DNA of 4,741 bases, from the IMG/VR virus record IMGVR_UViG_2724678985_000016; one strand, written 5' to 3'. A program made the position numbers and the translations under genes. Under the pieces are notes generated by a model, which saw nothing but the letters and a program-made list of their open reading frames with translations, had not been told where the DNA came from and did no database searches. Numbering within the stretch: position 1 is the stretch's first letter; each line of letters opens with the position of its first letter. Below, in pieces: positions 1-4,741 of this stretch. Source of the stretch: a virus (Duplodnaviria; Heunggongvirae; Uroviricota; Caudoviricetes).

Positions 1-41
1 TATTATGCTTCCATCGGAAACGATGATCTGGCAGCCTGAGT

Positions 42-323
42 TCACAGATAAAACACTCTCCAGGTAACCCGGGGCGGTTCAAGTTTTTTGCGGGCATTTT
101 GCCAGTCCTTTCGTGCCTGTTCAGACGGGAATAACCCGTAGCCGGAGTTGTATACATAACCACTGGCAACCAGCTCTCTGGCAAGAATGCTCATCAGATA
201 TCTTGTCGCACCTGTTTTAGCTTCCAACTGTCGTAATGTCTCGCGACCGCTCTGGCGCACAAGTTCGACCACCTGCTCTTTAATTTTTTTCCCGCTCTTC
301 CTGTGTAAAAACTTTTGCCACAA
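42..323 (-). CDS. Small hypothetical protein (93 aa as drawn), possible helix-turn-helix, immediately downstream of the replication initiator gene
   Basis: Seen in sequence: ORF with stop at 42-44, 38-bp gap after the replication gene stop. Strong Shine-Dalgarno AAGGAGG lies upstream, but only 2 nt from the TTG at 321-323, so the true start is uncertain. Segment RETLRQLEAKTGATRYLMSILAREL looks HTH-like (inference). No family recognised. Confidence 0.45.
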   Translation of the reverse strand: MWQKFLHRKSGKKIKEQVVELVRQSGRETLRQLEAKTGATRYLMSILARELVASGYVYNSGYGLFPSEQARKDWQNARKKLEPPRVTWRVFYL

Positions 324-2117: not shown

Positions 2118-2525
2118 ATGAACGAGAAAACTTTAGGTCAACGCATTAGAGAAAGACGTAAGCAGGTAGGCTTAAGTCAAAACGGTTTAAGCAAAGCTGC
2201 TGGCGTATCTGGCTCATCAATTTCATTATGGGAAAGTGACCATACAGCCCCGCGTGGGCAAAATTTGCATCGCCTCGCCGAGGTATTGCAATGTTCACCA
2301 ACCTGGATACTGTTTGGCGACGAGGACAAAACACCAGCTCCCCCTGTTTCACTCGATAGTGCCTTAGACTTATCGGAAGATGAGTTAGAGATGCTGCGTT
2401 TGTATCGCGCACTTCCTAAATCAGAGCAACAAGCACAACTCAGCGAACTCCGCGCCCGCGTTGAGAATTTTAATCGCCTGTTCACCGAGCTATTAGAGGC
2501 TCGCAAACGCAACAAGCATCAATAA
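2118..2525 (+). CDS. dicA: DicA repressor (XRE-family HTH, cI/C2-like prophage repressor), 135 aa
   Basis: 135-aa ORF, the same length as E. coli K-12 DicA. N-terminal HTH (QRIRERRKQVGLSQNGLSKAAGVSGSSISLWE) and the stretch LHRLAEVLQCSPTWILFGDEDK plus C-terminal LSELRARVENFNRLFTELLEARKR closely match my recollection of DicA. Divergent from the cro-like gene. Confidence 0.9.
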   Translation: MNEKTLGQRIRERRKQVGLSQNGLSKAAGVSGSSISLWESDHTAPRGQNLHRLAEVLQCSPTWILFGDEDKTPAPPVSLDSALDLSEDELEMLRLYRALPKSEQQAQLSELRARVENFNRLFTELLEARKRNKHQ

Positions 2526-2582: not shown

Positions 2583-2603
2583 CCAATACTTGAGTTTTCT
2601 CAT
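2583..2603. promoter_or_regulatory. Second operator-like site (gccaatacTTGAGttttCTCAt) downstream of dicA, upstream of the dicB-operon promoter
   Basis: Seen in sequence: 2590-2602 ttgagttttctca is identical to 2054-2066; the flanking ccaata is also shared (2048-2053 vs 2584-2589). The right arm is imperfect (CTCAt). The position is analogous to lambda OL relative to cI (inference). Confidence 0.45.
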
Positions 2604-2611
2604 CAAAAAAT

Positions 2612-2641
2612 CTTGACGAAAAATAATGAGAAAACTAAATT
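2612..2641 (+). promoter_or_regulatory. Candidate sigma70 promoter of the dicB operon (-35 TTGACG, about 18-bp spacer, -10 TAAATT)
   Basis: Seen in sequence: TTGACG at 2612-2617 and TAAATT at 2636-2641 (4/6 match to TATAAT), about 75 bp upstream of ydfA and immediately downstream of the operator-like site. Not experimentally positioned here. Confidence 0.35.
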
Positions 2642-2717: not shown

Positions 2718-2870
2718 ATGGATACTATCGATCTTGGCAACAGCGAATCTCTGGTATGTGGCGTGTTCCCCAACCAGGACGGTACGTTCACCGCGATGAC
2801 ATATACCAAAAGCAAAACGTTTAAAACCGAATCTGGCGCGCGTTGCTGGTTAGCCAGAAACACTGACTGA
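2718..2870 (+). CDS. ydfA: YdfA-like small protein (first gene of dicB operon), 50 aa
   Basis: ATG at 2718 with GAGG 7 nt upstream (GGGGAAATGAGGTCAGC-ATG). Protein MDTIDLGNSESLVCGVFPNQDGTFTAMTYTKSKTFKTESGARCWLARNTD matches my recollection of K-12 YdfA. The track ORF 2562..2870 extends upstream but has no RBS there. Confidence 0.8.
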   Translation: MDTIDLGNSESLVCGVFPNQDGTFTAMTYTKSKTFKTESGARCWLARNTD

Positions 2871-3247
2871 TGAGGCTGACGATGGAATTTAAAGATTTAC
2901 CGTCTGATGTACAGAAAACAGCAGCTCATACATTGCATTCTGTGCTGCGAGAAATCGGGAAAGATATTGCAAGCGAGCCAGCAAAAGATCTGGCCCGGAA
3001 AATCAAGACCGCTTTCGTTGAGCTTTATAATGTTGGCACTGACTCTGAAACTGTCGAGACCAAGACCGTAAGTTCACCAATATTCTCACTTGAGCCAGGC
3101 GTATTAGCAGGTGAAATGTGCACCGAGATTTCCAGCGAACTGCTTCCGGTAATACGAGAAGCAATTTGCCGTCGCGGTTTGGATGGAAGTTACGATCATG
3201 ACGTCCTGCAAGTTCTCAGGACAATGGTGACTTCACTGGGGATTTGA
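2870..3247 (+). CDS. YdfB/YdfC-like protein encoded here as one continuous ORF (125 aa from ATG 2870, or 121 aa from ATG 2882)
   Basis: ATG at 2870 overlaps the ydfA stop (TGATG). An alternative ATG at 2882 has GAGG 6 nt upstream. It occupies the position of ydfB+ydfC in the K-12 dicB operon (recalled as two short ORFs of 42 and 72 aa); here no in-frame stop separates them. Confidence 0.6.
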   Translation: MRLTMEFKDLPSDVQKTAAHTLHSVLREIGKDIASEPAKDLARKIKTAFVELYNVGTDSETVETKTVSSPIFSLEPGVLAGEMCTEISSELLPVIREAICRRGLDGSYDHDVLQVLRTMVTSLGI

Positions 3248-3416
3248 TCCCTGCGTCCTCTAACCTTTTGATATAGCGGTCCTCCAAGAAGCGGTAAATT
3301 TTGTCGAAATCATCTTTCCCCTCTGGTTTATTCAGAGGATTACAGGACCCGTAAGTAGCGGCATACATTTCAACCGTTTTATCAAAAATATAAGAGACAA
3401 ATTCTTCTTTAGTCAT
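3216..3416 (-). CDS. Hypothetical acidic 66-aa protein encoded antisense to the dicB operon (moron-like), convergent with and overlapping the 3' end of the ydfB/C-like ORF
   Basis: ATG at 3414-3416 (minus) preceded by AAGAAGGAAATCTAT (SD AAGGA, 7-8 nt spacing). Protein MTKEEFVSYIFDKTVEMYAATYGSCNPLNKPEGKDDFDKIYRFLEDRYIKRLEDAGIKSPVKSPLS has a balanced, protein-like composition. The local sequence appears more AT-rich than its flanks. No homolog recalled. Confidence 0.4.
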   Translation of the reverse strand: MTKEEFVSYIFDKTVEMYAATYGSCNPLNKPEGKDDFDKIYRFLEDRYIKRLEDAGIKSPVKSPLS

Positions 3417-3691
3417 ATAGATTTCCTTCTTGGTTATTCGGAATAAGAAGGATACCACCTCGCCTGACGTGGTTAAAAGCAGGCACACAACACGAAAGCG
3501 CACGGCGAAGTTCGTCTCACTGTACGGTGTCGTTAAATTTAATTCGACCGTGCGCTTCCGGTTGTGGCAACCCGCGAAATGGCGCGGCGGTAAGTATGGC
3601 GGGGTTATTCCTTCCCCGTTGAGGACACCGGGTTGTCAGGTTGACCATACGCTTAAGTGACAACCCCGCTGCAACGCCCTCTGTTATCAAT

Positions 3692-3749
3692 TTTCTGGTG
3701 ACGTTTGGCGGTATCAGTTTTACTCCGTGACTGCTCTGCCGCCGTTTTT
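3692..3749 (+). ncRNA. dicF: DicF small RNA (Hfq-dependent sRNA targeting ftsZ and other mRNAs), including 3' U-tract
   Basis: 3692-3743 (tttctggtgacgtttggcggtatcagttttactccgtgactgctctgccgcc) matches the 53-nt DicF sequence as I recall it, with a possible single difference at the last base. It lies between ydfB/C and dicB as in K-12 and ends in a GC stem plus T5. Confidence 0.75.
3707..3749 (+). terminator. Intrinsic terminator at the DicF 3' end (GGCGG...CCGCC stem followed by TTTTT)
   Basis: Seen in sequence: GGCGG 3707-3711 pairs with CCGCC 3739-3743, followed by g + TTTTT at 3745-3749. DicF is known to be generated partly by termination at its own terminator (established knowledge). Confidence 0.6.
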
Positions 3750-3918
3750 AAAGTGAATTTTGTGATGCGGTGAATGCGGCTAAGCGCACGCGGAACAGTT
3801 AAAACCAAAAACAGTGTTATGGGTGGATTCTCTGTATCCGGCGTTAATTGTTAACTGGTTAACGTCACCTGGAGGCACCAGGCACTGCATCACAAAATTC
3901 ATTGTTGAGGACGCGATA

Positions 3919-4107
3919 ATGAAAACGTTATTACCAAACGTTAATACGTCTGAAGGTTGTTTTGAAATTGGTGTCACTATCAGTAACCCTGTATTTACTG
4001 AAGATGCCATTAACAAGAGAAAACAAGAACGGGAGCTATTAAATAAAATATGCATTGTTTCAATGCTGGCTCGTTTACGTCTGATGCCAAAAGGATGTGC
4101 ACAATGA
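3919..4107 (+). CDS. dicB: DicB cell-division inhibitor (MinC-activating, ZipA-dependent), 62 aa
   Basis: ATG at 3919 with GAGGA 7 nt upstream. Protein MKTLLPNVNTSEGCFEIGVTISNPVFTEDAINKRKQERELLNKICIVSMLARLRLMPKGCAQ matches my recollection of K-12 DicB (62 aa). The track ORF 3814..4107 has a spurious N-terminal extension. Confidence 0.9.
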   Translation: MKTLLPNVNTSEGCFEIGVTISNPVFTEDAINKRKQERELLNKICIVSMLARLRLMPKGCAQ

Positions 4108-4295
4108 ATTCAGCATTTGCGCTTGTTCTGACAGTTTTTCTTGTTTCCGGAGAGCCAGTTGATATTGCAGTCAGTGTTCACAGGACAATGCAGGAGTGTA
4201 TGACTGCAGCAACCGAACAGAAAATTCCCGGTAACTGTTACCCGGTCGATAAAGTTATTCACCAGGATAATATCGAAATCCCGGCAGGTCTTTAA
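4104..4295 (+). CDS. ydfD: YdfD-like small membrane/lysis protein, 63 aa
   Basis: ATG at 4104 overlaps the dicB stop (ATGA), with AAGGA 8 nt upstream. N-terminal hydrophobic segment MNSAFALVLTVFLVSGEPV. Position and sequence fit ydfD of the dicB operon (recalled). Confidence 0.8.
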   Translation: MNSAFALVLTVFLVSGEPVDIAVSVHRTMQECMTAATEQKIPGNCYPVDKVIHQDNIEIPAGL

Positions 4296-4388: not shown

Positions 4389-4741
4389 ATGAGTAAAGTC
4401 TTTATTTGCGCCGCTATTCCTGACGAACTGGCAACAAGGGAAGAAGGCGCTGTGGCTGTAGCCACAGCCATTGAAGCTGGCGACGAACGCCGTGCTCGAG
4501 CAAAATTTCACTGGCAGTTCCTGGAACATTATCCGGCTGCTCAGGACTGCGCTTATAAATTTATTGTCTGCGAGGATAAACCTGGCATACCCCGCCCTGC
4601 CCTCGATTCATGGGATGCTGAATATATGCAGGAAAACCGCTGGGATGAGGAATCCGCTTCCTTTATTCCGGTCGAACCAGAATCCGATCCGATGAACGTC
4701 AATTTTGACAAGCTGTCCCTTGAAGTACAGAACGCGGTCCT
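4389..4741 (+). CDS. ydfE: YdfE-like protein, 5' portion only (open reading frame runs off the window end)
   Basis: ATG at 4389 with GAGGT about 10 nt upstream; in-frame translation MSKVFICAAIPDELATREEGAVAVATAIEAGDERRARAKFHWQFLEHYPAAQDCAYKFIVCEDKPGIPRPALDSWDAEYMQENRWDEESASFIPVEPESDPMNVNFDKLSLEVQNAV continues without a stop to position 4741. It is absent from the ORF track because it has no stop in the window. Position after ydfD fits ydfE. Confidence 0.7.
   Translation, partial: MSKVFICAAIPDELATREEGAVAVATAIEAGDERRARAKFHWQFLEHYPAAQDCAYKFIVCEDKPGIPRPALDSWDAEYMQENRWDEESASFIPVEPESDPMNVNFDKLSLEVQNAV

Follow-up and report, generated by a model that had tools for sequence, protein, structure and literature searches.

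The dicBF cassette, which has been under study since the late 1980s, brings together the small RNA gene dicF, the division inhibitor gene dicB and the lysis gene ydfD within a prophage operon. Positions 3692-4295 of the stretch of DNA analysed here (4,741 nucleotides, hereafter the window) were predicted from the letters of the sequence to carry such a cassette, described as not novel and as able to act as a superinfection-exclusion or abortive module once DicA repression is lifted. This raises the question of whether the three elements are genuine and intact, which regulatory elements surround them, and whether they serve the phage, the host, or neither. We conclude with high confidence that the locus is a canonical dicBF cassette belonging to the early-left (pL-type) operon of a lambdoid prophage of the Qin/mEp460 type in Escherichia coli O111:H8, with the mechanism and the early phage role set out below.

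Source and genomic context

Chromosomes of E. coli O111:H8 and related strains match the window at 100% identity, and in strain 7-55 62A it lies within a Qin/mEp460-type lambdoid prophage adjoining rspB, which is the site of Qin in K-12. The features that bear on the cassette are collected in Table 1. Within the early-left operon the cassette precedes exonuclease, xis and int (in the source prophage the order is ydfD - exonuclease - xis - int), and the lysis, terminase and capsid genes are found farther upstream of the window. The left half of the window encodes, on the minus strand, an O-like replication initiator, a YdaT/CII-like protein and a P22-Cro-like protein. At the other end, the exonuclease gene is full length (2472 nt) in the source genome annotation and is the intact counterpart of the K-12 pseudogene ydfE; exonuclease, xis and int are all intact in the source prophage, their K-12 counterparts being pseudogenes or interrupted by IS2. 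The insertion sequence IS1203 touches the left end of the window, where its end was read from the sequence at approximately position 81, and truncates a DUF977 gene beside the replication genes. With an insertion at this place the source prophage may be defective, and any lytic-cycle role may therefore have ceased in the source strain.

Table 1. Features of the dicBF operon and its surroundings, in window coordinates
Feature	Position	Strand	Evidence
Putative operator, perfect palindrome TTGAG-TTTT-CTCAA	2054..2067	.	between cro-like and repressor genes
DicA-family (CI-like) repressor	2118..2525	+	NCBIfam NF007257 'transcriptional repressor DicA'; Pfam HTH_3
Putative operator, 1 mismatch to palindrome	2590..2603	.	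just upstream of operon-promoter -35
Operon promoter, TTGACG-17-TAAATT	2613..2641	+	consensus scan; equivalent of K-12 dicBp
Putative operator, 2 mismatches, inverted	2626..2639	.	overlaps spacer and -10
ydfA homologue (DUF1391), first gene of the operon	2718..2870	+	Pfam PF07151 E = 4.3e-27; 88% identical to K-12 YdfA
121-aa gene, in the place of K-12 ydfB/ydfC	2882..3247	+	phrog_33007 E = 1.4e-81
66-aa antisense gene	3216..3416	-	phrog_34441
Long hairpin with RNase III site yielding the 190-nt DicF precursor	3483..3568	+	fold of 3480-3760
dicF sRNA gene, 53 nt	3692..3744	+	Rfam RF00039; 52/53 identical to K-12
Conserved structured RNA leader, 174 nt	3745..3918	+	fold energy, covariation, sub-threshold STnc100 match
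dicB, MinC-dependent division inhibitor	3919..4107	+	62 aa, 100% identical to K-12 DicB
ydfD, lysis protein	4104..4295	+	63 aa, 62/63 identical to K-12 YdfD
Large exonuclease gene, 5' part	4389..4741	+	phrog_2082 'exonuclease' E = 1.1e-82; runs past window end

The dicF small RNA and its precursor

A Rfam scan for DicF and an alignment to the K-12 dicF, dicB and ydfD genes had been named as checks on the original prediction, and both bear it out. The scan of the window gave a match to RF00039 at 3693-3744 on the plus strand that covers the full model (1-52 of 52) with 72.5 bits and E = 3.6e-15, above the gathering score of 48 bits. The predicted agreement of 52 of 53 nucleotides with K-12 proved exact in the alignment to b1574, taken from the K-12 Qin locus (NC_000913 1644000-1654000), and the sole change is the last base, 3744, which is G here and C in K-12 and is unpaired in the Rfam consensus structure. 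We considered this single substitution as a disrupting mutation and rejected it: the minimum-energy fold is the same for both alleles (-16.6 kcal/mol for the window, -15.9 for K-12), both alleles form the same predicted duplex with the ftsZ leader of K-12, leaving the last base unpaired, and the window allele is common, being found exactly in 891 records. The 3' end forms a terminator hairpin followed by UUUUU and folds as in K-12. The gene is set, moreover, in a polycistronic prophage operon with a DicA-type repressor upstream and dicB downstream.

The sequences associated with DicF processing are conserved. Homology to K-12 restarts at approximately 3483, the foot of the long hairpin, whose 3' arm is the same as in K-12 and whose 5' arm carries two changes, in each case C for U opposite G, that keep the pairs. 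The segment from approximately 3540 to 3743 is identical to K-12, and between approximately 3540 and 4400 the window departs from K-12 Qin at only about six single positions, including a 1-nt indel. RNase III and RNase E free DicF in K-12, and an RNase III cut at position 813/814 leaves a 190-nt DicF species (PMC10448788); the corresponding 5' end is expected at approximately 3555 in the window, within the 3' arm of the hairpin.

A 68-nt dicF query found the gene in 3947 of 5426 complete E. coli genomes, about three quarters, at a median of one and a maximum of seven places per genome, and the prophages that carry it are often defective. The same query finds 4 places in O111 strain E2863, and a dicF-plus-leader query matched 4721 genomes and six places in the source strain, a count that takes in kil-type leaders. 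The targets of DicF include ftsZ and also xylR, pykA and manX, which are contacted through separate 5' and 3' pairing regions (PMC5069750, PMC9438474), and in enterohemorrhagic E. coli (EHEC) activation of pchA by DicF and strains with four dicF copies have been reported (PMC7873438, PMC9438474). These reports, together with the multiple copies in O111 genomes and the O111:H8 EHEC-type source, suggest an alternative in which the cassette is mainly a host regulator, multi-copy dicF lifting the low-oxygen dose of DicF and through it pchA and LEE type 3 secretion, with dicB and ydfD as passengers. We regard this as somewhat unlikely, as dicB and ydfD have remained intact and their products differ from those of K-12 by zero and one amino acids, which is at odds with passenger status.

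DicB, YdfD and the question of phage defence

Both protein genes of the cassette are present and intact at the positions predicted. DicB matches Pfam PF05358 over positions 1-62 of 62 (E = 1.9e-40; 136.8 bits, cut-off 27) and NCBIfam NF049927 with 132.8 bits (cut-off 100), and YdfD matches Pfam PF07358 (DUF1482) over its full length (E = 2.1e-26; 92 bits, cut-off 25). The only difference between YdfD and its K-12 counterpart lies in the N-terminal domain, where residue 6 is alanine here and valine in K-12, and the ydfD start overlaps the dicB stop as ATGA at 4104-4107, as in K-12. Alignment to K-12 revealed no frameshift or premature stop in the cassette and confirmed the homologues; the cassette is indeed a known one.

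The activities that the original prediction ascribed to the cassette, namely repression of ftsZ, action on MinC and ManYZ, and lysis by YdfD, are published for the K-12 genes (PMC5069750, PMC9438474, PMC6832061, PMC8835842). DicB acts via MinC on division and on ManYZ, and transient expression of dicBF gives a DicB-dependent resistance of approximately 100-fold to lambda and other ManYZ-dependent phages (PMC6832061). YdfD binds and inhibits IspG, leading to cell lysis, and this lysis is reported to be prevented by co-expression of DicB (PMC8835842), which the present operon would also provide. Given its identical sequence and the published data, DicB of this prophage would be expected to act through MinC to block both the Z ring and ManYZ (PMC6832061), and IspG inhibition and lysis by YdfD would carry over from the K-12 literature in the same manner (PMC8835842). 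More generally, the K-12 experiments can probably be extended to DicF, DicB and YdfD here, as the products are identical or nearly so.

These properties also underlie the reading of the original prediction, which is compatible with the explanation we prefer: that the host retains the cassette chiefly as a defence module, in which DicB blocks entry of DNA from competing phages on derepression and YdfD kills the cell if that fails. The published phage resistance, the complete identity of DicB to K-12 and the wide distribution of dicF, often in defective prophages, would fit such a module. A dedicated defence or abortive role is nevertheless less well supported, and as the main account of the cassette we consider it unlikely. 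A search of PADLOC-DB 2.0 at E <= 0.01 gave no matches for the YdfA, 121-aa, 66-aa, DicB, YdfD and YdaT-like proteins, protection comes only once an operon toxic to the cell is derepressed, and the cassette fills the kil slot in the early lytic operon of viable phages. To our knowledge, the operon has no infection-sensing trigger. The prevention of YdfD lysis by DicB, moreover, argues against a built-in abortive step. The exclusion of lambda by DicB stands as published (PMC6832061), whereas no abortive-infection role is published, and this part of the original claim finds no support in either the PADLOC search or the YdfD data (PMC8835842).

Repressor, operators and promoter

The original prediction placed the operon under DicA, and this is correct at the level of the family but not of the individual repressor. 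The window protein matches NF007257 with 239.4 bits (cut-off 101) over positions 1-135 of 135, which makes it a member of the DicA subfamily, yet it is only 57% identical in amino acid sequence to K-12 DicA and its helix-turn-helix sequence is divergent. The Cro-like protein is 70% identical to K-12 DicC, with the differences in the N-terminal half. The DNA is mosaic in this region, with homology to K-12 ending at approximately 1945 and restarting at approximately 2647, the predicted transcription start site. Operators of the K-12 TGTTAG type are absent from the window, which has TTGAGTTTTCTCA sites instead: a 14-bp palindrome, TTGAGTTTTCTCAA, is found in three places (2054-2067, 2590-2603 and, inverted, 2626-2639), and two of these copies bracket a sigma-70-like promoter at 2613-2641. 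Operator sequence and DNA-recognition region are accordingly not the same as those of K-12 DicA.

The promoter itself aligns column for column with the K-12 sequence TTGACC-17-TAATCT, and its position agrees with the published transcript co-ordinates (RNase III 813/814, 190 nt; PMC10448788). In K-12 the regulatory region has a three-operator layout (PMC10448788). There, dicBp is repressed by DicA, and Rem can lift this repression. The position of the three palindromes and their resemblance to that layout suggest putative operator function, and the same layout suggests that the window repressor acts on the promoter of its own operon. Judged from its sequence, this promoter is built like dicBp, yet is of a different immunity type than K-12 Qin, and because the immunity of the repressor differs from that of K-12 DicA, regulatory findings made in K-12, such as those on Rem and the DicA operators, may not transfer directly.

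The operon body upstream of dicF and comparison with related prophages

Relative to the K-12 Qin dicBF operon (ydfABC-dicF-dicB-ydfDE, b1571-b1577), the window shares, besides dicF (52/53), DicB (100%), YdfD (62/63) and YdfA (88%), the 5' UTR, the 190-nt precursor region, the leader between dicF and dicB, the ydfD-exonuclease spacer, the rspB-side chromosomal site and the promoter/operator layout. It differs in its swapped immunity cassette (repressor 57%, Cro-like protein 70%, other operator sequence) and in the replacement of ydfB and ydfC by a 121-aa gene and an antisense 66-aa gene. These differences, together with the intact genes downstream, are ordinary lambdoid mosaicism that affects the immunity type and exchanges the middle section. 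The original prediction mentioned neither the different repressor and operators, nor the ydfB/ydfC replacement, nor the structured leader between dicF and dicB.

The two replacement genes are convergent and overlap by 32 nt, and the same convergent pairing is present in an unrelated prophage. Homologues of the 121-aa protein are present in enterobacterial prophages, and homologues of the 66-aa protein with identities down to 54% remain 65-66 aa long. Comparison with YdfB, YdfC and Rac rac11 revealed no homology to the 121-aa protein, and comparison with Rac rac10 revealed none to the 66-aa protein. For the latter, Pfam, NCBIfam and PADLOC gave nothing and PHROGs gave only a family of unknown function; its AlphaFold model is a two-helix hairpin (pLDDT 82.8), for which Foldseek against the PDB returned no match below E = 4. 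The position of this antisense gene (3216-3416) inside the operon is such that it could hinder read-through to dicF. Phage mEp460 has the same antisense layout inside the operon.

Of 5426 complete E. coli genomes, 392 carry the variant with the 121-aa and 66-aa pair, as does phage mEp460_ev081 (LR597641.1), which has the same order from repressor to int, including the pair, and is 99.4% identical over 2871-3500 and 96.9% identical over the cassette at 3692-4295. The record of this phage contains no insertion sequence and has a rem antirepressor gene and a hok/sok locus, both outside the span of the window, and its dicF is the K-12 allele (76.7 bits). The cassette is also found in phages Tritos, HannyBb and PhiR42_1. 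In the kil/kilR region of Rac-like and Stx phages the same operon slot, from immunity region to exonuclease, is occupied by a division-inhibitor gene directly preceded by the same structured leader. These phages differ in that they encode a Kil protein instead of DicB and have no ydfD after it, and their dicF-like sequence either falls below the Rfam threshold (Rac-SA53, 41.1 bits) or is absent. Kil of lambda is a functional analogue.

A structured leader between dicF and dicB

The spacer between dicF and dicB has a minimum free energy of -65.5 kcal/mol (z = -5.76 relative to shuffled controls) and aligns with the whole 206-position model of the Rfam family STnc100 (RF02076) at 34.5 bits. We did not file the leader as STnc100 because this score is below the gathering score of 47 bits, and homologous leaders elsewhere score 32.9-43.8 bits on the same model. 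A sensitive search of phage records located the same element, without dicB, immediately before kil/kilR in Rac-like and Stx phages and immediately before tciA/terB in P7 and D6. Kil, like DicB, inhibits division; tciA is annotated by homology only as a possible inhibitor. In a 12-sequence alignment RNAalifold predicted six helices with a total of 38 pairs, of which 10 show compensatory changes. The proportion of paired cells was 97.4%, compared with 33-41% in slid controls, and in 500 shuffles the values observed for percentage paired, for pairs changed on both sides and for covariation score were never reached. This covariation supports a structured RNA rather than membership in RF02076.

The leader has boxes GGTGAAT and TCACCNGGAGGCACCNGGCAC and an overall nested-stem layout in common with the STnc100/PasD prophage sRNAs, but it is an internal operon leader that ends at the dicB start codon, whereas STnc100 is a stand-alone sRNA gene. 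A canonical STnc100 copy (143 bits) is present in the late region of the same prophage and has only the two sequence boxes in common with the leader. The outer stem pairs 3757-3772 with 3883-3898 and spans position 3763, at which the published RNase III cut would yield a 72-nt DicF (PMC5069750, PMC9438474). We also considered the spacer as protein-coding, since it contains part of a 97-aa in-frame ORF from GTG 3814 that is annotated as DicB in the mEp460 record; this reading was rejected because the element precedes unrelated genes, varies by insertion and deletion, and shows compensatory pair changes. An internal ATG is given as the DicB start by Cam et al. 1988, as cited in PMC8835842.

Tentatively, the spacer at 3745-3918 may itself be a mobile RNA leader of conserved structure, a distant relative of STnc100/PasD that lambdoid and P1-like phages have immediately before non-homologous genes. 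A search of a limited collection of papers found no description of a leader common to dicB, kil and tciA. Faubladier and Bouché are said to have described dicF-like sequences in Rac and other prophages in 1994, and part of the shared-leader observation is for this reason old. The structure of the leader is supported by the covariation, and its function is a matter of conjecture: it could be an RNase III-sensitive gate that parts DicF from the toxic mRNA and sets the amount of inhibitor, and it could also yield a second Hfq-type sRNA.

The state of the leader also bears on whether the cassette is a silent remnant in the source strain, kept only through recent acquisition. Truncation of the DUF977 gene by IS1203 is consistent with such a remnant, and the near-identical cassette across many strains fits recent spread. 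Yet promoter, operators, both processing hairpins, dicF, leader, dicB and ydfD are all intact, the changes that have occurred in the RNA stems preserve pairing, and in K-12 DicF accumulates in stationary phase from Qin, a similarly defective prophage (PMC10448788). We therefore consider a silent remnant very unlikely, and the reading of the locus as a canonical, intact dicBF operon segment is retained.

Proposed mechanism and biological role

In sequence, the two RNase III hairpins are intact, as are dicF, dicB and ydfD, and the predicted transcript matches K-12 from its start. By analogy with K-12, the repressor would hold the operon promoter off in the lysogen, and once repression is lifted a single polycistronic RNA would be made. 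Cleavage of the upstream hairpin by RNase III would yield the 190-nt precursor, which RNase E would trim to the 53-nt DicF ending at its own terminator, and read-through transcripts would contain the structured leader, dicB and ydfD. Together with Hfq, DicF would block translation of ftsZ and of metabolic mRNAs, the binding of DicB to MinC would prevent Z-ring assembly, and the same interaction would also turn off the mannose permease ManYZ and so block entry of DNA from lambda-like phages. YdfD would inhibit IspG.

The role for which the cassette is selected is most likely an early phage function that halts host division, as Kil does in lambda. Takeover of the host early in the lytic cycle is favoured because phage records place the cassette in the early-left operon, at the position of kil, and we judge such a role no less likely than defence. 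Exclusion of ManYZ-dependent phages and control of pchA by DicF in EHEC would then be added effects.

Implications

The cassette is real, correctly identified and already known, and it is ordinary in E. coli. As identified it is of little importance, being another intact copy of a cassette that most E. coli have. Its description has modest value for annotation, as dicF carries no RefSeq annotation in the source genome and the repressor is of a different immunity, and the host is of the O111:H8 EHEC type, in which expression of virulence genes reportedly responds to the dose of DicF. Of the parts of the locus, the structured leader alone offers something unexplored; if the interpretation of it is true, the presence of this element upstream of dicB, kil and tciA could explain post-transcriptional control of toxic phage genes.

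The dicF-dicB leader RNA

The spacer separating dicF from dicB has a conserved RNA structure, with 10 compensatory pairs in an alignment of 12 sequences, and on comparative sequence grounds we interpret it as a structured RNA leader and a relative of STnc100 (Rfam RF02076), though it falls below the gathering threshold of that family. In Rac-like and Stx phages this leader directly precedes kil/kilR, and in P7 and D6 it directly precedes tciA/terB. A dicF-like sequence (41.1 bits against an Rfam threshold of 48) was also observed in Rac-SA53 (locus L010, 2490-2544), where the shared leader and kilR follow it immediately.

Matches were found in two unexpected phage records. Aeromonas phage AP1 (MT713136.1, a 254-kb record) carries the dicF and leader of the window with 100% identity over 234 nt (249916-250149), and Actinobacillus phage vB_Apl-pPE4 (PP818812.1) carries the leader with 86% identity. 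Because these hosts are unexpected, contamination or a chimeric assembly is suggested.

Annotation of dicF and dicB

A 97-aa ORF with a GTG start is in frame with dicB, and in the mEp460 record DicB is annotated as this longer ORF (285 nt). The real DicB start is the internal ATG, at 3919 in the window, according to Cam et al. 1988, as cited in PMC8835842. In the RefSeq source genome (NZ_CP077506.1, ~2595700; locus L001, 15693-15744) the dicF RNA gene is unannotated, though dicB and ydfD are annotated.

Surrounding prophage and immunity region

Further features of the window
Feature	Position	Strand	Remark
IS1203 (IS3 family), right end	1-81		terminates ...GGTTCA at ~81
DUF977 gene	81-321	-	truncated by IS1203
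Putative operator copies	2054-2067, 2590-2603, 2626-2639		palindrome
DicA-family repressor	2118-2525
Mosaic junction, window/K-12	~2647		predicted transcription start
121-aa gene	2882-3247	+	convergent with 66-aa gene, 3' ends overlapping
66-aa gene	3216-3416	-	convergent with 121-aa gene, 3' ends overlapping
DicF precursor hairpin	3483-3568
Leader	3745-3918
97-aa ORF	3814-4107	+	GTG start at 3814

The DUF977 gene adjoins replication genes. Since the source genome appears to lack the nin/Q region between IS1203 and the lysis genes, the source prophage may be defective. The late region of the same prophage contains, at L001 10139-10391, a canonical STnc100 (minus strand, 143 bits), which the AgvB sRNA (96.5 bits) adjoins, with a DUF6645 gene downstream.

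The convergent 121-aa and 66-aa genes stand in place of the ydfB and ydfC of K-12, and the corresponding position in Rac-like phages (locus L015) is the sieB slot. An unrelated prophage (locus L008) has a 65-aa homologue of the 66-aa gene convergent with a 129-aa gene, whose product shares a C-terminal region with the 121-aa protein (36% over 39 aa), and in Cedecea (locus L006) a homologue of the 66-aa gene is found on the antisense strand, with cro on one side and a cII-like gene on the other. The model of the 66-aa protein is a helical hairpin, for which a search of the PDB found no structural matches.

Homology to K-12 resumes exactly at the foot of the long hairpin with the RNase III cleavage site that yields the 190-nt DicF precursor. 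Its 5' arm differs from K-12 at two positions, both with C in the window for U in K-12 and G opposite, and the stem of the window is therefore more perfectly paired.

The DicA-family repressor has 57% identity to K-12 DicA, and a putative 14-bp palindromic operator (TTGAG-TTTT-CTCAA), not of the K-12 type, brackets the operon promoter. As judged from sequence, the predicted immunity type of the window differs from that of K-12.
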